From IMG/VR virus record IMGVR_UViG_2547132281_000004: a stretch of DNA of 9,448 nt. One strand, given 5' to 3'. Positions 1-9,448 of this stretch are shown piece by piece. Source of the stretch: a virus. Lineage: Duplodnaviria; Heunggongvirae; Uroviricota; Caudoviricetes. The position numbers and the translations under genes are program-made. The notes beneath the pieces are model-generated. The model searched no databases. It had not been told where the DNA came from and worked only from the letters and a program-made list of their open reading frames with translations. Position 1 is the first letter of the stretch, and every line of letters starts with the position of its first letter.

Positions 1-1272
1 CAGCGTCCGTTGCGTCAGACCCGCACCCGTAAGCCGTTCCCTGAATCACTACCCCGTGACGAAAAGCGACTGTTGCCTGCGGCGCCGTGCTGCCCGAACT
101 GCGGCGGTTCACTGAGCTATCTGGGCGAGGATACCGCCGAACAGCTGGAGTTGATGCGTAGTGCCTTCCGGGTTATCCGGACGGTACGGGAAAAACATGC
201 CTGTACTCAGTGCGATGCCATCGTGCAGGCACCTGCACCTTCGCGGCCCATCGAGCGGGGTATCGCCGGACCGGGGCTGCTGGCCCGCGTGCTGACCTCG
301 AAGTATGCAGAGCACACCCCGCTGTATCGCCAGTCAGAAATATACGGCCGGCAAGGTGTGGAGCTGAGCCGTTCACTGCTGTCGGGCTGGGTGGATGCAT
401 GCTGCCGGCTGCTGTCTCCGCTGGAAGAGGCGCTTCATGGCTATGTCATGACTGACGGCAAACTCCATGCCGATGATACCCCGGTCCAGGTACTGCTGCC
501 GGGTAATAAGAAGACGAAGACCGGGCGGTTGTGGGCGTATGTTCGTGATGACCGCAATGCCGGGTCAGCGTTGGCACCTGCAGTGTGGTTCGCTTACAGC
601 CCGGACAGAAAAGGCATCCATCCGCAGACTCATCTTGCCTGCTTCAGCGGTGTGCTGCAAGCGGATGCGTACGCCGGGTTCAACGAGCTGTATCGCAATG
701 GTGGGATAACGGAAGCTGCCTGCTGGGCTCATGCCCGCCGAAAGATCCACGATGTGCACGTCCGCATCCCGTCAGCACTGACGGAAGAAGCCCTGGAGCA
801 GATCGGTCAGTTGTACGCCATAGAGGCGGATATAAGGGGAATGCCGGCAGAGCAGCGGCTTGCTGAACGTCAGCGAAAAACGAAACCGCTGTTGAAATCC
901 CTGGAAAGCTGGTTGCGTGAAAAGATGAAAACCCTGTCGCGACACTCAGAACTGGCGAAAGCGTTCGCATACGCCCTGAACCAGTGGCCGGCGCTGACGT
1001 ACTATGCAGATGATGGCTGGGCTGAGGCGGACAATAACATCGCTGAAAATGCGTTGCGGATGGTCAGTCTGGGCCGCAAAAACTACCTGTTCTTCGGTTC
1101 GGATCATGGAGGAGAGCGGGGAGCGCTGCTGTACAGCCTGATCGGGACGTGCAAACTGAACGGAGTGGAGCCAGAAAGCTACCTCCGCTATGTCCTTGAC
1201 GTCATAGCCGACTGGCCGATAAACCGGGTCGGCGAACTGCTCCCCTGGCGCGTAGCACTGCCGACTGAATAA
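1..1272 (+). CDS. IS66-family transposase (large TnpC-type ORF), 3' portion; 5' end lies outside the window
   Basis: Open frame runs from the window edge to a stop at 1270-1272. Translation carries an N-proximal CxxC...CxxC pair (CCPNCGG...CTQC) and conserved-looking blocks ([66 protein letters not shown]) that I recognise as IS66 TnpC. The Met at 10 is internal, not the true start. Confidence 0.9.
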
Positions 1273-1278
1273 CACATC

Positions 1279-1309
1279 CCCGTCAATACGGTTCTTGCTG
1301 CACGCTTAC
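1279..1309. repeat. Terminal inverted repeat (right end) of the IS66-family element
   Basis: Outer end ...CTGCACGCTTAC at 1298-1309 is the reverse complement of GTAAGCGTGCAG. The partner repeat is outside the window, so the inverted symmetry cannot be verified here. Confidence 0.55.
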
Positions 1310-1345
1310 AAAAAAATAATAGTTTTTTTTAACTCTGAACCAGCA

Positions 1346-1537
1346 ATGGTAGTGCCAGTGATGACCGGAGTTAACACCATCATGCGTGAATATCCAAATG
1401 GCGAAACAACACACCTCACTGTAATGGCTGCAGGGTTTCCATCTCTGACCGGAGATCATAAAGTCATTTATGTAGCAGCGGATCGACATGTAACTTCAGA
1501 AGAAATTCTGGAAGCAGCAATGAGACTCTTGAATTGA
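1346..1537 (+). CDS. Hypothetical small protein (63 aa); possibly the 3' remnant of a gene interrupted by the IS66 insertion
   Basis: ORF MVVPVMTGVNTIMREYPNGETTHLTVMAAGFPSLTGDHKVIYVAADRHVTSEEILEAAMRLLN. The track ORF starting at 1295 begins inside the IS terminus, so that start is an artefact. No clear Shine-Dalgarno before ATG 1346. Family not recognised. Confidence 0.3.
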   Translation: MVVPVMTGVNTIMREYPNGETTHLTVMAAGFPSLTGDHKVIYVAADRHVTSEEILEAAMRLLN

Positions 1538-1631
1538 TTTGATTCTAATGCATTGATAATAAATGATAATCATCTTTATCTGTTTGTGTGAAATTTAGAC
1601 CGTCGTATGTTGATTATTGCGATGTTTCATC

Positions 1632-1660
1632 TTATCTTTTATACGTTTGCTCCATATAAT
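1632..1660 (+). promoter_or_regulatory. Candidate sigma70 promoter for the Gns-like gene (perfect -10 TATAAT at 1655-1660, weak -35-like TTATCT at 1632-1637)
   Basis: TATAAT hexamer about 50 bp upstream of the 1710 start in an AT-rich leader; the -35 match is poor (3 of 6). Pattern-based only. Confidence 0.2.
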
Positions 1661-1709
1661 TGACACTACTGTGTACCAGGACAGTCATAACAGACTAAAA
1701 GAGGAAATG

Positions 1710-1883
1710 ATGAACATTGAAGAGTTAAAAACAAAAACAGAAGCAGATATTTCTGAATATATAACAAAAAAAATCATTGAGCTTAAGAAAAAGACCGGGA
1801 AAGAAGTTACCAGTATCCAGTTTACTGCACGGGAAAAAATGACTGGTCTTGAAAGCTATGATATCAAGATTGATTTAATCTAG
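1710..1883 (+). CDS. gnsB: Gns-family small protein (GnsA/GnsB-like)
   Basis: 57-aa product MNIEELKTKTEADISEYITKKIIELKKKTGKEVTSIQFTAREKMTGLESYDIKIDLI aligns along its full length with my recollection of E. coli GnsA/GnsB (MNIEELK...TGKEV..I.FTAREKMTGLESYD.KI). GAGG at 1701-1704 gives good spacing to ATG 1710; the track ORF from 1617 is an upstream in-frame extension. The gnsB symbol is chosen from the prophage context. Confidence 0.6.
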   Translation: MNIEELKTKTEADISEYITKKIIELKKKTGKEVTSIQFTAREKMTGLESYDIKIDLI

Positions 1884-2178
1884 CATGTTTATAGTATTAG
1901 CATCAATTTCTCATCAGATGCTATTCAACAATACAAATTATCCATAAACCTCGTTTTTACGGGGTTTTGTTATATTTAAACATTACCGAATAGATATAAA
2001 TCTCGATTGTCGATGGTATTGGTTGTGTGACAATACCTAGTCTTTCCGGTATGCCTGAAGAGAATACAAACGACAGATTATGTAAGGGAAACGCGCTGAA
2101 ACTTTCACTCTTTCATGCTGAGTGATTTGACGTTATATTTTTAGCCGCAAGTGAAGAGCAAACGAATGGAGCGACAAA

Positions 2179-2385
2179 ATGCATAAAGATCAATACACTG
2201 ATGCCCCCTCCCAGGAGCAGGTTCGTGTAAAAACTATGCTTAATAGCACCATTTCGATGGGTTACCCGGATGTTGTAATTGCATGTATAGAACATCAAGT
2301 ATCTCTGGAAGCATTCAGGGCAATTGAGGCCGCGTTAGTAAAGCACGATAAGAATACGAAGGATTATTCCCTGGTGGTTGACTGA
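2179..2385 (+). CDS. Hypothetical small prophage protein (68 aa)
   Basis: [71 protein letters not shown] with GGAG at 2167-2170, 8 nt before the ATG. It sits between the Gns-like gene and the terminase small subunit, the position occupied by ynfO/ydfO in K-12 Qin as I recall the map; identity not verified. Confidence 0.5.
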
Positions 2386-2754
2386 TCACCATAACTGCTA
2401 ACCATTCTGACCATTTCACAAGTGACAGAGTCAATATCGTATTCTGTCACTGTAATGCTAATACAGTACTGCAATTCAACTACAGCAATGCCTCGTATTT
2501 AGGTGAATTTACAATATCGTCCAGTTCGGATGCCGGCTGCATTTCTGAAGATAAGGCATTTCGGTTCGCGTATTTTCCCCTCATGCTCGTCAGTCCTGCG
2601 CGTAGTAAGAAACAGGACACTCACACTAATTTGTGTGAGCATGCTGTGATGTCCTTCTGAATTATCCCCATGCCATTATGTAACGCTCTGTTTCAGATGC
2701 TCGTCACGGTTGTCAGGCTGTCGGGTCCTCCCAGTGGGGGTCCCTGCCACGGGG

Positions 2755-2790
2755 CGGGAGCGTCGCGGAAAAAGACTAGTTTTTGCATTT
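2755..2790 (+). other. Candidate lambda-like cos site (cosN-like core about 2762-2773)
   Basis: ACGGGGCGGGAGCGTCGCGGAAAAAG resembles the lambda cos junction ...ACGGGGCGGCGACCTCGCGGGTTTTCG (12-nt cohesive end GGGCGGCGACCT) as I remember it. It lies about 175-185 bp upstream of the terminase small subunit start, as Nu1 does relative to the lambda left end, and is followed by AT-rich DNA. Confidence 0.4.
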
Positions 2791-2947
2791 CCATGGCGGC
2801 GGCAGCATGTTTGGTAATTTATTGATAATTAAAAGTTATTTCTCTTTTCACCTGTACAATATTTTTTTCTCCCTGTCATTAGACCAGTTTGCAATTAATT
2901 GAAATATATAAATAAACCTGATTTTCACCTGCCAGATGGAGTTGCTT

Positions 2948-3475
2948 ATGTCAAATGTGAGCGGGATCGGTGATGCTTATTACTGGAGTGTTTTTAAAAT
3001 CGCCGAGGCCTTTGGGCTTCACCGGGACACAGTAAAAAAACGGCTCCTCGCGGCCAACACTCCTGTGGCTGCGACTGTCAGGGGGAACCCCGTTTACGCC
3101 CTGCAGCATGTCGGGCCCGCCCTGTTTAGTGTGAAGCATGAGGCAGCAGACTCTGTTCATGATCCATCCCGTATGGAGCCGAAAGAGAGAAAGGACTGGT
3201 ACCAGTCTGAAAATGAAAGGATCAAGCTGGAAAAGGAGCAGCGAAAACTCATCCCAGTTGATGAAGTAGTCATCGTCTATTCGTCCATGAGAAAGGCTGT
3301 CGTCCAGGTTCTGGAGACAATTCCGGATGTTCTTGAACGCGATTGCGCCCTGACTCCTCAGGCCGTCGGCGTTGTACAGCAGGCCATTGATGACCTGCGA
3401 TACACTCTTCAGGAAAAATCCTACGAGGCTTGTGCTGCTGAATTAATTCCTGATGAGGAAGGAGAGAGTCTCTAG
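2948..3475 (+). CDS. Phage terminase small subunit (Nu1-like DNA-binding packaging protein)
   Basis: Immediately upstream of and coupled to the large terminase subunit. N-terminal helix-turn-helix-like segment (SVFKIAEAFGLHRDTVKKRL) and a charged block (ENERIKLEKEQRKL) resemble lambda Nu1 (AERDAEIENEKLRRE). GGAG at 2938-2941 favours ATG 2948 (MSNVSG...); ATG 2936 is an in-frame alternative. Confidence 0.8.
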   Translation: MSNVSGIGDAYYWSVFKIAEAFGLHRDTVKKRLLAANTPVAATVRGNPVYALQHVGPALFSVKHEAADSVHDPSRMEPKERKDWYQSENERIKLEKEQRKLIPVDEVVIVYSSMRKAVVQVLETIPDVLERDCALTPQAVGVVQQAIDDLRYTLQEKSYEACAAELIPDEEGESL

Positions 3476-3483
3476 GAGGAATA

Positions 3484-5583
3484 ATGGGTTTTTCATCAGC
3501 CCGAAATTTGGGAAGGGACATATCGGCAGGATTTTCCCCACCACGTCGCATGCCGATTTCGGAGGCTGTTAAAAAATTCATGCGTGTTCCCAAGGGGGCT
3601 GGTAACTCGGTGCCATGGGATCCTGAACTGACACCCTACATCATTGAGCCCATGAACTGCCTGGCATCGCGTGAATACGATGCGGTGATTTTTGTTGGTC
3701 CTGCGCGAACAGGGAAGACCATTGGTCTGATCGATGGATGGATTGTCTATACCATCGTTTGCGATCCTTCGGACATGCTCGTTGTGCAGATGACCGAAGA
3801 TAAGGCCCGCGAGCATTCTAAAAAGCGCCTTGACAGAACGTTCAGAAGCAGTGCGGCGGTAAAGAAAAGAATGAGTCCACGTCGTAACGACAATAATGTC
3901 CATGATAAGACGTTCAGGGATGGCTCGTTCCTTAAAATTGGTTGGCCCTCGGTCAATATTATGTCGTCGTCGGATTACCGGTTTGTCGCCTTAACCGATT
4001 ACGACCGTTTTCCGGAGAATATCGACAGCGAGGGTGATGGTTTCTCCCTGGCCTCAAAACGTACCACCACATTTATGTCCGCCGGGATGACTCTGGTGGA
4101 GAGCTCGCCGGGACGTGACATCTGCGACAGCAAATGGCGACGTAAGTCGCCTCATGAAGCGCCACCGACGACTGGTATTCTTTCCCTTTACAATCGTGGT
4201 GACCGCCGCCGCTGGTACTGGCCATGTCCGCACTGCGGTGAATATTTTCAGCCAGCTATGGATGCCATGACCGGCTACCGTAATGAACCGGATCCCTTTA
4301 AAGCCAGTGAGGCGGCGTATCTACTTTGCCCGCACTGCAGCGGCATTATCACTGCGGAGAAAAAGCGTGAGCTCAATAGTGCAGGAGTCTGGTTGCGTGA
4401 AGGTCAGGTCATTGATCGTAACGGCAACGTTTCCGGTGAACCGCGCCGCTCCCGTATCGCCAGTTTCTGGATGGAAGGGCCAGCTGCTGCGTATCAGACC
4501 TGGGCGCAACTGGTTTACAAATTACTGACTGCAGAACAGGAGTATGAAGCGACAGGAAGCGAAGAAACACTCAGGGCGGTTATCAACACCGACTGGGGAT
4601 TGCCTTATCTTCCTCGTGCCAGCATGGAGCAACGAAAAAGTGAACTGCTTGAGCAGCGGGCAGAGCCAGTTCCTTCCCGCAGTGTTCCGGATGGCGTTAA
4701 TTTCCTTGTGGCGACAGTGGATGTGCAGGCGGGACGTCATCGCCGTTTTGTGGTTCAGGTAACGGGCTATGGCAGCCGTGGCGAACGCTGGATTATTGAT
4801 CGTTACAACATCACGCAGTCATTGCGCAGTGACTGCGACGGGGAGAGCCAGCGAATTGATCCGGCCAGCTATCCGGAAGACTGGGATGTCCTGCTGACGG
4901 ATGTTTTTCATAAAAGCTGGCCGCTGGCCTCCGATCCTTCTCAACAAATGCGACTGATGGCAATGGCGGTGGACTCCGGCGGTGAAGACGGGGTCACTGA
5001 TAATGCCTATAAATTCTGGCGTCGTTGCCGTCGTGATGGCCTTGGTAAACGTATTTACCTGTTTAAGGGCGACAGCATCCGGCGCGCAAAACTGATCAGC
5101 CGTACATTCCCTGATAACACCGGACGAACGGGCCGCCGGGCGCAGGCCGCAGGTGATGTGCCGCTCTGGCTTCTTCAGACGGATGCCCTGAAAGACCGGG
5201 TGAATAACGCGTTATGGCGTGACTCGCCAGGTCCAGGCTATGTGCATTTCCCTGACTGGCTGGGGAGCTGGTTTTACGACGAACTGACGTATGAAGAGCG
5301 GAGCAGTGACGGGAAATGGAGTAAGCCGGGTCGCGGTGCCAACGAAGCTTTTGACCTGATGGTGTATGCCGAGGCTCTGGTCATTCTGCATGGATACGAA
5401 AAGATCCGCTGGCCGGATGCACCGGAGTGGGCGAGCCGGGAAACCTGGCTGGAGTGTGTCCCGGACAGTACCGAACCGTCACCCTCACCGGAACCGGTAC
5501 CCACGCCTGTTAAAAAACAAAAACGGAAGAAAACAGTAACTGACGATGTTAACCCCTGGCTGACTTCCGGAGGATGGTTATGA
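3484..5583 (+). CDS. Phage terminase large subunit, GpA (lambda A) family
   Basis: 699-aa uninterrupted ORF with strong SD AGGAGGA at 3474-3480. Walker A-like GPARTGKT; paired CPHCG...CPHCS motifs. Blocks align with lambda gpA from memory (VGPARTGKT vs KSARVGYSK; CPHCGEYFQ vs CPHCGEEQY; VDVQAGRHRRFVVQVTGYGSRGERWIIDRYNI vs IDSQLDRYEMRVWGWGPGEESWLIDRQII). Confidence 0.95.
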   Translation: MGFSSARNLGRDISAGFSPPRRMPISEAVKKFMRVPKGAGNSVPWDPELTPYIIEPMNCLASREYDAVIFVGPARTGKTIGLIDGWIVYTIVCDPSDMLVVQMTEDKAREHSKKRLDRTFRSSAAVKKRMSPRRNDNNVHDKTFRDGSFLKIGWPSVNIMSSSDYRFVALTDYDRFPENIDSEGDGFSLASKRTTTFMSAGMTLVESSPGRDICDSKWRRKSPHEAPPTTGILSLYNRGDRRRWYWPCPHCGEYFQPAMDAMTGYRNEPDPFKASEAAYLLCPHCSGIITAEKKRELNSAGVWLREGQVIDRNGNVSGEPRRSRIASFWMEGPAAAYQTWAQLVYKLLTAEQEYEATGSEETLRAVINTDWGLPYLPRASMEQRKSELLEQRAEPVPSRSVPDGVNFLVATVDVQAGRHRRFVVQVTGYGSRGERWIIDRYNITQSLRSDCDGESQRIDPASYPEDWDVLLTDVFHKSWPLASDPSQQMRLMAMAVDSGGEDGVTDNAYKFWRRCRRDGLGKRIYLFKGDSIRRAKLISRTFPDNTGRTGRRAQAAGDVPLWLLQTDALKDRVNNALWRDSPGPGYVHFPDWLGSWFYDELTYEERSSDGKWSKPGRGANEAFDLMVYAEALVILHGYEKIRWPDAPEWASRETWLECVPDSTEPSPSPEPVPTPVKKQKRKKTVTDDVNPWLTSGGWL

Positions 5584-5792
5584 ATCAGAATGATATTGAA
5601 GCCATGATTCAGCGTTATACGGAAGCTGAAATGGCGGTGCTGGACGGAAAATCCGTCACTTTTAATGGTCAGCAGATGACCATGGAAAACTTATCTGAGA
5701 TCCGGCAGGGGCGGCAGGAGTGGGAGCGCCGCCTTGCGGCTCTGATTACACGACGACGGGGGCATCCCGGGTACCGGCTGGCGAGGTTCTGA
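5580..5792 (+). CDS. gpW-like head-tail joining / head completion protein
   Basis: 70-aa product MNQNDIEAMIQRYTEAEMAVLDGKSVTFNGQQMTMENLSEIRQGRQEWERRLAALITRRRGHPGYRLARF resembles lambda gpW (...[55 protein letters not shown]). ATG 5580 overlaps the terminase stop (ATGA) with GGAGG at 5569-5573; position after the large terminase matches lambda gene order. Confidence 0.75.
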   Translation: MNQNDIEAMIQRYTEAEMAVLDGKSVTFNGQQMTMENLSEIRQGRQEWERRLAALITRRRGHPGYRLARF

Positions 5793-5981
5793 TGGCAATT
5801 CTTGATGATGTGATTGGCGTTTTTTCACCAGGATGGAAAGCGGCAAGGCTGCGTTCCCGTGCGGTGATCCAGGCTTATGAGGCCGTAAAAACGACGCGGA
5901 CACACAAAGCCCGACGGGAGAACCGAACTGCCGACCAGTTAAGCCAGTACGGGGCCGTGTCGTTACGTGAGCAGGCCCGTT
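5792..5981 (+). pseudogene. Portal protein gene, N-terminal fragment only (about 63 codons), truncated by internal deletion
   Basis: ATG 5792 overlaps the gpW stop (TGATG). [63 protein letters not shown] looks like the start of a lambda-family portal protein in the gene-B position, but near 5981 the frame runs into tfa-derived DNA and stops at 6031. Confidence 0.55.
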
Positions 5982-6431
5982 ATTGCACCACCAGATATTC
6001 CTGCTGGCTTTGTGGCTGTTTTCAACAGTGATGAGGCATCGTGGCATCTCGTTGAAGACCATCGGGGTAAAACGGTTTATGACGTGGCTTCCGGCGACGC
6101 GTTATTTATTTCTGAACTCGGCTCATTACCGGAAAATGTCACCTGGTTATCCCCGGAAGGGGAGTTTCAGAAGTGGAACGGCACAGCCTGGGTGAAAGAT
6201 GCAGAAGCAGAAAAACTATTCCGGATCCGGGAGGCGGAAGAAACAAAAAACAGCCTGATGCAGGCAGCGAATGAGCATATTGCGCCACTTCAGGATGCTG
6301 TAGATCTGGAAATCGCAACGGAGGAAGAAAACTCGTTGCTGGAAGCCTGGAAAAAGTATCGGGTGTTGCTGAACCGTGTTAATACAACAACTGCACCGGA
6401 TATTGAATGGCCAGTAGCACCTATAGGGTAA
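5982..6431 (+). CDS. Tail fiber assembly protein (Tfa), C-terminal ~150 aa; 5'-truncated fragment fused to the portal remnant
   Basis: From [47 protein letters not shown]...[33 protein letters not shown] the translation closely matches E. coli prophage Tfa proteins as I remember them (...[19 protein letters not shown]...[11 protein letters not shown]...PDIEWP...). The family N-terminal ~45 aa are absent; the ATG at 5967 (MSRPV) lies in portal-derived DNA. Confidence 0.8.
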
Positions 6432-6514
6432 ATTCGTAATGATTACCTAAATACGTTATTCTTTTGTTCAAAAAGTGATTTTGCTATAGGTAGGGAGTAT
6501 GTTCTTGGATTAAG

Positions 6515-6547
6515 AATAAAAAATCGCCATGAAAGAGCTTCATGGCG
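6515..6547 (-). terminator. Candidate intrinsic terminator, minus-strand orientation
   Basis: Perfect 9-bp stem CGCCATGAA/TTCATGGCG with a 5-nt loop at 6525-6547; on the minus strand it is followed by ATTTTTTATT (plus-strand A-run at 6515-6524). No T-run follows it on the plus strand. Confidence 0.4.
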
Positions 6548-7020
6548 AGTACATAAACGTACAAAATGTGATGAAAGTAGAGTGGCGTAAGCCACTATAT
6601 TAAGATATGACAATAGCGAACAAAAGTAAATAACATTTTATGGACGTTTAATTGTTAATTATAAAAACTAGAGTGCCCGATATTGTTTATCTTGCTTTAA
6701 AATAATGTACTCAAACCAAATTTTTGAGCTAAAAGCTCAAATAATATAAATGCAATGATAATGTTTAATAAGACAATTAGCTTGCTTTGTATTTTCATTT
6801 CGGAATACTGTTAAGTAACTTTGATGACCCTAACAATAGATCGGAATTTTCTTAGAGTCAATGGTCACTGTTTTTGTTTGCAAAGCAAATGTTTTGGTGG
6901 TTATAAGTTTTCCTAATATAGTCACCTATGCAACTTGTTCCGTGTGGAGATTAAAGGTTAAAATTTAATGCGAGGATGGAATTATAATATATTTTTTTAT
7001 AATTAATTTAACCTTAACAT

Positions 7021-7118
7021 CGTTGCTGGCGGCATGGAAGAAATATCGGGTCTTGCTGATATCGTGTTGGCACTTCCTTAGTGCGGTTATCGAATGGCCA
7101 GCTGTACCTGTGGGGTAA
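7021..7118 (+). repeat. Second, diverged direct copy of the tfa 3' end (last ~32 codons plus stop), detached from any tfa body
   Basis: Aligns base-for-base with 6334-6431 at roughly three quarters identity by eye. Its translation stays in frame ([32 protein letters not shown]) and keeps the Tfa C-terminal motifs WKKYRVLL and IEWP, so it derives from a once-functional tfa allele. Confidence 0.7.
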
Positions 7119-7250
7119 AAACTTTATATGGATGCTATTTTTATAATAGCTGGTAAAAACTGGCCGAACTGAAATTCACTGTTGATAAAAAAGATGTGTT
7201 TGAGTGTATGTCATTGTTTTCTTAATGGAATCCACTAGAATGCAGCGAAT

Positions 7251-7448
7251 TTAAGAAGGTGGGTTTTTATTGGAATATAAACTACAATAATGCTCAACTC
7301 GTTCGTAGAATTGTTTTTTCTTATTTCTTGGAATGCTAACCATTATATGCATTATGGGGGCGATACTTCCTGATAATTTACATGATGCATACATTGAAGC
7401 AATAAATTCAATATCATTGTCATCAAAGTTAAAGCTTTCTCCGTCCAT
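7251..7448 (-). CDS. Hypothetical small protein (65 aa) inside the second AT-rich cassette
   Basis: Minus-strand ORF MDGESFNFDDNDIEFIASMYASCKLSGSIAPIMHIMVSIPRNKKKQFYERVEHYCSLYSNKNPPS with AAGGA 6 nt upstream of the ATG. Uninterrupted frames of this length are less expected by chance in such AT-rich DNA, but a 63-aa plus-strand ORF (7333-7524) overlaps it and no family is recognised. Confidence 0.25.
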   Translation of the reverse strand: MDGESFNFDDNDIEFIASMYASCKLSGSIAPIMHIMVSIPRNKKKQFYERVEHYCSLYSNKNPPS

Positions 7449-7776
7449 TTCAATTCCTTATGTGTTTGGCACAACTGATGCTGTATCCCATGAGAATTTA
7501 TGCAAGTTGTTATGTTTGATTTGATATTGCAATGATAATTGTAGCTAATTGTTTTCAATTGAGTGAAAGTTTATTTCGAGTGATTAAGTCGAAAAAAAAG
7601 ATTTCTCACGGTTAGTAAGCATATTAGGTCAGTATTCAGATATGAATGGTATTAATGACTAAATTTTCAATCATATATGGATTTTTATGCTGATGAAGAT
7701 GTTTTATTTGGCGATTCGTCAAGCATCTTCACTTAAGTAATCGTATATTTTAAGAGTGCAAAAGAGAAAGGGACAA

Positions 7777-7876
7777 CGTTGCTCGCACTCTGGATTAAAT
7801 ATAGGGTGTTGTTAAACTGCGTTGATACATAATTGTACCGGATATTGAGTGGTCTGAAGTCCCAGTCATTAAGTAA
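7777..7876 (+). repeat. Third, more decayed direct copy of the tfa 3' end
   Basis: CGTTGCTCGCACTCTGGATTAAATATAGGGTGTTGTTAAAC...CCGGATATTGAGTGG...TAA translates to TLLALWIKYRVLLNCVDT* then, in a shifted frame, PDIEWSEVPVIK*. Tfa motifs are recognisable but the frame is broken. Confidence 0.65.
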
Positions 7877-8164
7877 TCGTTTCGTGATATGCCGCAGAAA
7901 CGTTGTATGCAATAACGTTCTGCGGTTGGCTGATGCACTTTCGAGAGTGTATTGAATAATTTCAAGCCGTTATTGTTTTTACGCGTAACACCATGAAAAG
8001 ACTGCTTATCTGTTGGGGTGTTTTTTGGGGCATATATGGGACAGAAATAGGCCACAGATAGATAGTAAGATCGAACTCAGGATGCTTTTGAAAAAATGTA
8101 ACTATCTGAAAAAACCTAGAAAGCGCCAAGGAAACCACAGAATGAGAAAAAACATCTGTGAATT

Positions 8165-9448
8165 ATGGATTTCCAGTTATATTCGCTCGGCGCAGCGTTA
8201 GTGTTTCATGAAATATTTTTTCCTGAATCATCAACGGCAATGGCGTTAATTTTGGCAATGGGAACCTACGGTGCAGGTTATGTGGCGCGTATTGTCGGAG
8301 CATTTATTTTCGGCAAAATGGGCGACAGAATAGGGCGTAAAAAAGTGCTCTTTATTACCATCACCATGATGGGGATCTGTACCACCTTAATTGGTGTGTT
8401 ACCGACCTATGCACAGATTGGTGTTTTTGCCCCCATCTTGCTGGTGACGCTGCGTATTATTCAGGGGTTGGGTGCAGGTGCGGAAATTTCCGGTGCCGGT
8501 ACGATGCTGGCGGAATATGCACCAAAAGGTAAGCGCGGAATTATCTCCTCATTTGTAGCTATGGGAACTAACTGCGGAACCTTGAGCGCAACGGCAATCT
8601 GGGCCTTTATGTTCTTCATTCTCAGTAAAGAGGAACTGCTGGCGTGGGGATGGCGTATACCGTTCCTGGCGAGCGTTGTCGTGATGGTCTTTGCTATCTG
8701 GTTACGTATGAATCTGAAAGAAAGCCCGGTCTTTGAGAAGGTTAATGACAGCAACCAACCCACAGCAAAACCTGCACCTGCTGGTAGCATGTTCCAGAGC
8801 AAATCCTTCTGGCTGGCAACAGGGCTGCGTTTTGGTCAGGCGGGTAACTCCGGGTTAATTCAGACTTTCCTTGCAGGCTATTTAGTGCAGACGTTATTGT
8901 TTAACAAAGCAATTCCAACAGATGCATTGATGATTAGTTCGATTCTCGGCTTTATGACCATTCCGTTCCTTGGTTGGTTATCCGATAAAATTGGTCGCCG
9001 GATCCCGTATATTATTATGAATACCTCCGCGATTGTGCTGGCATGGCCAATGCTTTCTATCATTGTAGATAAAAGCTATGCCCCGAGCACCATTATGGTT
9101 GCACTGATTGTGATTCATAACTGTGCGGTGCTGGGATTATTTGCTCTGGAAAACATTACCATGGCAGAAATGTTCGGCTGTAAAAACCGCTTTACCCGGA
9201 TGGCTATTTCTAAAGAAATTGGTGGTCTTATCGCTTCCGGTTTTGGTCCTATCCTGGCGGGTATTTTCTGCACCATGACGGAATCCTGGTATCCGATCGC
9301 CATTATGATCATGGCATATTCAGTAATTGGTTTAATCTCTGCGCTGAAAATGCCAGAGGTGAAAGACCGTGATTTAAGTGCGCTGGAAGACGCTGCGGAA
9401 GATCAACCGCGTGTTGTAAGAGCTGCGCAACCTTCCAGAAGTCTGTAA
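8165..9448 (+). CDS. ydfJ: MFS transporter, metabolite:H+ symporter (MHS) family, lacking the N-terminal ~30 codons (ydfJ-like 3' portion; may be a pseudogene fragment)
   Basis: 427-aa ORF, multi-helix hydrophobic, with MFS signature GKMGDRIGRKK and a second motif LSDKIGRR. Aligns with ProP from the region FDFSVYGF...FFP onward, so the first helix and the family N-terminal motif are missing. No SD before ATG 8165. Length and N-terminus match my recollection of K-12 YdfJ (427 aa), whose 5' part is separated by the Qin prophage. Confidence 0.8.
   Translation: MDFQLYSLGAALVFHEIFFPESSTAMALILAMGTYGAGYVARIVGAFIFGKMGDRIGRKKVLFITITMMGICTTLIGVLPTYAQIGVFAPILLVTLRIIQGLGAGAEISGAGTMLAEYAPKGKRGIISSFVAMGTNCGTLSATAIWAFMFFILSKEELLAWGWRIPFLASVVVMVFAIWLRMNLKESPVFEKVNDSNQPTAKPAPAGSMFQSKSFWLATGLRFGQAGNSGLIQTFLAGYLVQTLLFNKAIPTDALMISSILGFMTIPFLGWLSDKIGRRIPYIIMNTSAIVLAWPMLSIIVDKSYAPSTIMVALIVIHNCAVLGLFALENITMAEMFGCKNRFTRMAISKEIGGLIASGFGPILAGIFCTMTESWYPIAIMIMAYSVIGLISALKMPEVKDRDLSALEDAAEDQPRVVRAAQPSRSL

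Follow-up and report, generated by a model that had tools for sequence, protein, structure and literature searches.

A cos-terminase-W packaging module probably left in place by a recent deletion in a Tritos/cdtI-like prophage remnant

Origin of the remnant

The window analyzed here is the whole 9,448-nucleotide stretch of IMG/VR record IMGVR_UViG_2547132281_000004. Its open reading frame (ORF) listing, the family scans, and the RefSeq annotation of near-identical loci show it to be the right arm of a lambdoid prophage of the Tritos/cdtI type that sits in ydfJ. It carries a cos site, the genes of the small and large terminase subunits (terS and terL), and a gene for a W-like head-tail adaptor next to a region from which the head and tail genes have been lost. 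An earlier note on this DNA had taken the retention of this packaging module as potentially meaningful, either because the element behaves like a satellite or for another reason. We propose instead, with a probability of roughly 0.88, that it is an ordinary prophage packaging module left by one recent accidental deletion of 19,689 bp, with no selection acting on it.

The left end of the deletion lies in the portal gene. The first 63 codons of this gene (5792..5982, plus strand) match the portal family PHROG 21 and are collinear with the portal genes of Tritos and cdtI up to position 5982; beyond this point the frame stays open outside its original context until a stop at 6031, giving a fusion ORF of 79 amino acids. 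From 5983 to 6431 on the same strand follows tfa', the 3' part of a tail-fibre-assembly gene without its 5' end, identified by Pfam Caudo_TAP and by PHROG 105 (profile positions 56-202). The junction lies in the 6-bp sequence CCGTTA at 5977..5982. At the same locus, E. coli D6 (NZ_CP010148) has a complete prophage of about 45.3 kb with the order int-xis-…-Q-lysis-terS-terL-W-portal-protease/capsid-…-J-lom-stf-tfaQ-ydfJ'. The window aligns to D6 positions 15736-18995 and 38679-42150 with a 6-nt overlap, the second segment beginning at the position of window 5977 and inside tfaQ, which starts at 38552. CCGTTA is present at both breakpoint sites in D6, and the window is without 19,689 bp relative to D6. 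This is the signature of a single microhomology-mediated deletion, by which the window would have arisen.

The claim that the window has no structural genes is correct. The portal stub is fused to the 3' part of tfa at 5982|5983, and nothing phage-structural was found between tfa' and ydfJ' (8165). The junction was found in none of 5,426 complete genomes, and the fusion ORF is on only 15 contigs. We considered an assembly artefact and rejected it, since five or more independent NCBI assemblies and one SRA-derived contig share the junction.

In the proposed course of events, illegitimate recombination at the 6-bp microhomology would have removed the DNA from portal codon 64 through the 5' part of tfa. 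The cos site, terS, terL, and W would survive only because the left end of the deletion fell just downstream of W, and the module would be unchanged because the deletion is too young for mutations to have built up. Two further events, the insertion of an IS66-family insertion sequence (IS) and a 7-bp slippage frameshift in terL, would have followed later in different sister strains. Since the remnant is without portal, scaffold/capsid, and tail genes, the module would have no autonomous function and would be free to decay, and the completion of packaging would need a helper.

Age of the deletion and test for constraint

The relatives of the window indicate that the deletion is young. Over cos to W (2723-5792), the window and the two complete prophages L007 and L015 are identical at every nucleotide. 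Over 1310-5982 the identity to the same prophages is 99.94%, and all three differences fall on portal-stub sites that vary among intact prophages. Two sister assemblies share the deletion junction. The first, L020, is 100% identical to the window over 1310-9448 and keeps the upstream Q-holin-lysozyme-Rz-cspI genes. The second, L021 (GCA_049980125.1), departs from the window at a single place in 8,139 nt: in its 5318 region, the tandem 7-bp repeat GCTGGCC GCTGGCC inside terL (window 4916..4929, plus strand) has lost one of its copies. The repeat is an apparent slippage site. In L021, terL is frameshifted at about codon 480 and stops after 488 residues. The zero divergence from intact prophages implies that the intactness of the module reflects recency and not selection.

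Other strains carry independent deletions at the same locus. Their shared left part is 97.5-100% identical, and these variants hold DNA that is absent from the window, just as the window holds DNA that is absent from them. The left ends of the deletions are scattered: at about terL nucleotide 794 in ZY22049, about 1282 in MS6192, and about 1388 in 13C1079T and eight further identically matching genomes, at about W codon 65 in the E14 clone, and in the protease/capsid gene in the fox isolate and APEC O78. More truncated copies of terL are found among the 5,426 complete E. coli genomes. The scattered endpoints, together with the frameshift in the same deletion lineage, are as neutral decay predicts. 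The earlier note had stated that its reading would fall if close relatives had a broken terminase ORF and gave no sign of constraint, and this is what the relatives show: terL is frameshifted in L021 and cut at three different positions among the deletion variants, and the module is 100% identical to that of intact prophages. The idea of a meaningful retention is therefore not upheld.

The idea can be put in two forms, in which selection keeps the module either as part of a cos satellite like P4 or the phage-inducible chromosomal islands (PICIs), or as a domesticated terminase serving in defence or as a cos decoy. All four parts of the module are intact beside a total loss of structural genes, and cos and terS are kept in every deletion variant seen at the locus, both of which are in its favour. 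However, the ORF, Pfam, and PHROG scans of the window gave no satellite hallmark genes, and the relatives show an ordinary lambdoid context with Q, holin, lysozyme, Rz, dicB, hokD, int, and xis. Close relatives have terL cut short at several points, a frameshifted terL occurs within the very lineage that carries the junction, this junction is confined to 15 contigs, and the zero divergence from intact prophages explains the intactness without selection. We regard maintenance by selection as largely refuted and hardly credible.

Several points weigh against the neutral reading or limit it. The 7-bp frameshift of L021 is known from a single draft assembly and may be an error of that assembly. 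The retention of cos and terS in all listed deletion variants leaves room for selection, and weak selection may act on this left part. The ratio of nonsynonymous to synonymous substitutions (dN/dS) has no power on the remnant, with zero substitutions relative to L007 and L015 in cos-terS-terL-W, and the argument rests on the relatives. Finally, the ends assigned to the cos site below follow the ends of the Tritos and cdtI records as deposited. In terL, 5 of the 19 differences from cdtI and 2 of the 13 from Tritos are nonsynonymous, and this low share reflects selection in working phages, not in the remnant.

An intact terminase beside deleted structural genes should thus not be read as domestication without checking the divergence and the relatives.

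The cos site

The cos region extends from 2723 to 2947, from cosQ through a cosB-like stretch. The pattern GGGTCCT-N22-ACG GGGCGGGAGCGT CGCGG has a single occurrence in the window, at 2723-2768, and was found in none of 200 shuffles. Its first element is a cosQ-like heptamer, GGGTCCT (2723..2729, plus strand), which lies 22 nt before the predicted top-strand nick and is identical to lambda 48473-48479. The putative 12-nt cohesive end GGGCGGGAGCGT, the cosN core, is at 2752..2763 on the plus strand. The top strand would be nicked at 2751|2752 and the bottom strand at 2763|2764, and the length of 12 nt is assigned by likeness to lambda and Gifsy-1 (PMC4669245).

The predicted top-strand nick lies where phage records end. 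In megablast against phage records, those of Tritos (OV696610) and cdtI (AB285204), which were deposited independently, both start at window position 2752. At its other end, the Tritos record closes with …CCCCTGCCACG, in agreement with the window up to 2751. As this record ends at 2751 and starts at 2752, the phage ends, once joined, follow the window without a break across 2751|2752. The termini are not discussed in the Tritos paper (PMC9928086).

Comparison with lambda confirmed the earlier suggestion of a cosN-like sequence related to lambdoid cos sites. The window core reads ACG|GGGCGGGAGCGT|CGCGG and that of lambda ACG|GGGCGGCGACCT|CGCGG. The cosQ heptamer, the flanking ACG and CGCGG, and cohesive-end bases 1-6 (GGGCGG) are identical, with the CG steps at the predicted nick sites conserved, whereas bases 7, 8, 9, and 11 differ. 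The spacing from cosQ to the nick is N22 in the window vs N23 in lambda. From the left end to the terS start there are 185 nt (ATG 2936) or 197 nt (ATG 2948) in the window, compared with 191 nt in lambda, and the lambda-typical distance that had been claimed is borne out. Lambda-like cos phages are defined by these cosQ/cosN features (Feiss et al. 2015, PMC4669245), and cosQ is highly conserved among them (PMC4669245). Natural cosN variants differ only within bases 7-11, and the cohesive end of Gifsy-1 is reported to differ from that of lambda at bases 8, 9, and 11 (PMC4669245). Judged by its bases, the window cos is a Gifsy-1-like variant of lambda-like cos. This places the cos of the Tritos/cdtI phages with DUF1441-type terminases in the lambda-like group beside Gifsy-1. 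The strict cosQ/cosN pattern had no match in one 5-kb stretch of Gifsy-2.

The cosQ/cosN pattern is conserved in Tritos, cdtI, PhiR47_1, and the D6 prophage, and the sequences left of cosQ are unrelated among them. The homology of the mosaic phages (D6 prophage, cdtI, and PhiR47_1) was seen to begin exactly at the cosQ heptamer (window 2723; D6 15736). As homology starts at cosQ and the left side is unrelated, a recombination module boundary coincides with the functional start of cos.

Between cosN and terS lies a cosB-like A+T-rich region (2764..2947, plus strand), which differs from Tritos at 2 nt (2775 and 2871). It contains a palindrome at 2771-2784, and a repeat search there gave short repeats only. 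An exact consensus for integration host factor (IHF) is at 2815-2827 on the minus strand; it is weakly above chance, since 17 of 200 shuffles give at least two matches over the window. An Rfam search of the cos/terminase region gave no match.

Terminase genes and the W-like adaptor

The terS gene (2948..3475, plus strand) encodes a DUF1441-type small terminase of 175 amino acids, or 179 if translation starts at the alternative ATG 2936. It matches Pfam DUF1441 (E 1.7e-44) and PHROG 141, 'terminase small subunit' (E 8e-65). A BLASTP comparison with lambda Nu1 was not significant, and Pfam gave DUF1441 only. Reciprocal cross-matches between the PHROG families are weak, with terS matching PHROG 57 of Nu1 at 1e-09 and Nu1 matching PHROG 141 at 5.6e-08. 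TerS may be a distant relative of Nu1 with a Nu1-like role, as its position suggests.

The terL gene (3484..5583, plus strand) encodes an uninterrupted gpA-type large terminase of 699 amino acids, a length shared by cdtI orf2 and the RefSeq proteins. Its GpA_ATPase (PF05876, E 5e-81, profile 2-247 of 247) and GpA_nuclease (PF20454, E 1.8e-86, profile 1-294 of 294) domains are full length, and its identity to lambda gpA is 24%. Both terminase subunits are thus as the earlier note had described them. TerL has exactly the amino acid sequence of a protein for which the assembly collection lists 5,254 blocks, and the ten contexts shown are all complete prophages. Of the 5,426 complete E. coli genomes, 1,883 carry terL-like DNA that spans 80% or more of the gene.

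Relatives of the mEp460, Ayreon, and O157 types show about 85% identity to terL only from nucleotide 97 (window about 3580), and terS and cos are unmatched in them. The terS/cos module seems to take the first 32 or so codons of terL along with it. In lambda, the N-terminus of gpA binds TerS, which would fit a terL start that moves with terS and cos.

The third gene (5580..5792, plus strand) encodes a 70-amino-acid protein that matches PHROG 118, 'head-tail adaptor' (E 8.5e-37). Its description as gpW holds in part. A W-like head-tail adaptor is found, but the protein has no Pfam gpW match (DUF6148 is at E 0.0013, below its cut-off) and no BLASTP match to lambda W, which belongs to PHROG 75 and not to 118. 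The AlphaFold2 model is a helix-hairpin-helix (pLDDT 82), the topology of gpW. The protein is gpW-like in size, position, coupling to terL and portal, and predicted fold, while the family searches do not place it in gpW. The coupled overlaps noted earlier are likewise present in part: terL and W overlap by ATGA and W and portal by TGATG, but terS and terL are 8 nt apart without overlap (TAGGAGGAATAATG).

For the parent phage, the steps of packaging can be outlined from the gene families and the lambda paradigm (PMC4669245). TerS would bind cosB while IHF bends the DNA, and TerL would nick cosN to produce 12-nt 5' ends. The DNA would then be pumped rightwards from 2752 into a prohead, cosQ and cosN of the next unit would end packaging, and W would cap the filled head at the portal. 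Tritos, which has the same module, forms virions and plaques (PMC9928086).

Helper-assisted packaging

The state of the module raises the possibility that the remnant is mobilized by a helper. In this case, a phage of the same cos specificity, either resident in the same cell or superinfecting it, would provide proheads and tails, the remnant's own terminase might do the cutting, and the element or the adjacent chromosome would be packaged. Intact prophages have exactly this cos region (100% identity), the functional phage Tritos differs in it by 2 nt, and helpers are plentiful, given the frequency of this terminase type among complete genomes noted above. The sister L020 also keeps the late operon Q-holin-lysozyme-Rz upstream. 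In O157 Sakai, prophages without head or packaging genes are packaged via other prophages, and Sp4 probably uses the terminase of Sp14 through a near-identical cos (PMC2669165). Chromosomal DNA between two cos sites can be packaged in situ by a helper, and termination is independent of cosB specificity (PMC4669245).

The size of the remnant counts against this possibility. If the unseen left arm resembles that of D6, the remnant would be about 26-28 kb, or about 57-62% of a helper genome of 45-46 kb. In lambda, units below about 75-78% of the genome length are poorly packaged, and a dimer of the remnant would exceed capacity. In addition, the window shows no capsid-size-redirecting gene and none for integrase, excision, or replication, functions that would lie outside it, and with only one chromosomal cos there is no further cosQ/cosN downstream at which packaging could end. 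Any such capacity would be at most accidental, and the frameshifted sister L021 speaks against selection for packaging. Helper-assisted packaging of the remnant is physically conceivable and has a published precedent (PMC2669165), so it would not be new, but we consider helper mobilization unlikely for this element.

A variant of this idea is that, during induction of or superinfection by a Tritos-like phage, the chromosomal cos and its cognate terminase act in situ, either packaging ydfJ', ydfI ... dcp or titrating the helper. We think this very unlikely. If true, one-directional packaging of host DNA would be the cos-phage counterpart of lateral transduction, and a titrated or misdirected packaging machinery would lower the helper yield.

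Flanking genes and insertion sequence

The insertion site in ydfJ is the Qin site of E. coli K-12; Qin itself presumably carries a Nu1-type nohA remnant and not a DUF1441 terS. The right end of the element is ydfJ' (8165..9448, plus strand), the 3' part of a host gene for a major facilitator superfamily transporter that is split by the prophage. The assignment follows the RefSeq annotations of relatives ('ydfJ ... missing N-terminus'), and to the right of ydfJ' are ydfI-ydfZ-rspR-ydfG-dcp.

The left end of the window is the right part of an IS66-family element (1..1309, plus strand), recognized by the tnpC ORF and the IS end. It consists of the 3' part of tnpC and the terminal repeat ...GCACGCTTAC. 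An IS66 annotation is also found in the relative MS6192. The element abuts ynfN (1310-1537) exactly, and the ATG of ynfN is replaced by the IS end; the sister assembly L020 is IS-free and reads ...ATTATG|AAAAAAAT there. Because L020 has the same deletion junction without the IS, the 19.7-kb deletion predates the IS66 insertion. Contig AELE01000002.1 (GCA_000166615.2) matches the window with 100% identity over its positions 2-9449 and starts inside the IS66 element; the source contig breaks there because of the IS insertion.

Between ynfN and the cos region, the ORF map of the window contains gnsB (1710-1883) and a ybcW-like small gene (2179-2385). In E. coli 13C1079T, one of the strains with a truncated terL (cut at about 1388), gnsB is also annotated as frameshifted (L001 6398-6573), which is further piecemeal decay of the same arm.

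On the other side of the deletion, tfa' and ydfJ' are separated by an A+T-rich spacer of 1.7 kb (6432-8164) with a G+C content of 30-36%. It contains one conserved ORF of 65 amino acids on the minus strand (7251-7448), which RefSeq annotates as 'hypothetical' in all relatives and which has no Pfam or PHROG match. This ORF may be a moron or an att-proximal cargo gene. Rfam gave a match to IS009 at 6193-6391 (plus strand; 212 bits vs a gathering score of 117) that lies entirely within the 3' part of the tail-fibre-assembly gene, and this 'RNA family' may be conserved tfa coding sequence.

Comparison with known systems

The cos satellites, P4 and the E. coli PICIs such as EcCICFT073 (PMC6739421, PMC6092414), resemble the window in having a helper-compatible cos and few or no virion genes. 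They differ in that they mostly lack a terminase but carry an integrase, regulators, and a primase/replication module of their own, together with genes that redirect packaging or capsid formation. The window has no such satellite genes, and the genes surrounding the module are those of a normal lambdoid late operon.

Lambda shares with the window the gene order terS-terL-W-portal and a similar distance from cos to terS, and the IHF consensus in the cosB-like region may be a further likeness. It differs in its Pfam Nu1 TerS, where the window has DUF1441, in the PHROG family of W (75 vs 118), and in the low identity of TerL given above.

The closest functional phages are Tritos (OV696610), which is prophage 3 of E. 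coli LF82, and cdtI (AB285204). Over window 2752-5982 they are 99.35% and 99.04% identical to the window, respectively, with the same cos core, terS, terL, W, and portal start, and the late region of Tritos likewise has cspI, ynfN, gnsB, and ybcW before cos. Compared with both, the window is without 19.7 kb of head and tail genes, is fixed in ydfJ, and has an IS66 element upstream, and their tail-fibre regions differ from its own. The D6 prophage has the same integration site. Its right end (tfaQ - 65-amino-acid ORF - ydfJ') is 99.86% identical to the window, and its packaging module is 99.69% identical from cosQ onwards. It differs in retaining the 19,689 bp from portal through tfaQ, and its sequence left of cosQ is unrelated.

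The nearest parallels in kind are the defective prophages of O157 Sakai (Asadulghani et al. 2009, PMC2669165) and Qin of K-12, in which morphogenesis genes carry deletions or insertion sequences while cos and terminase are retained. Some of the O157 Sakai prophages are packaged by inter-prophage complementation. Seen in this company, the element belongs to a known phage type, from which it would have been truncated recently and by accident, and as a defective prophage it is of a known kind. Beyond correct annotation it has little significance of its own, but it is a clean, dated example of prophage decay.

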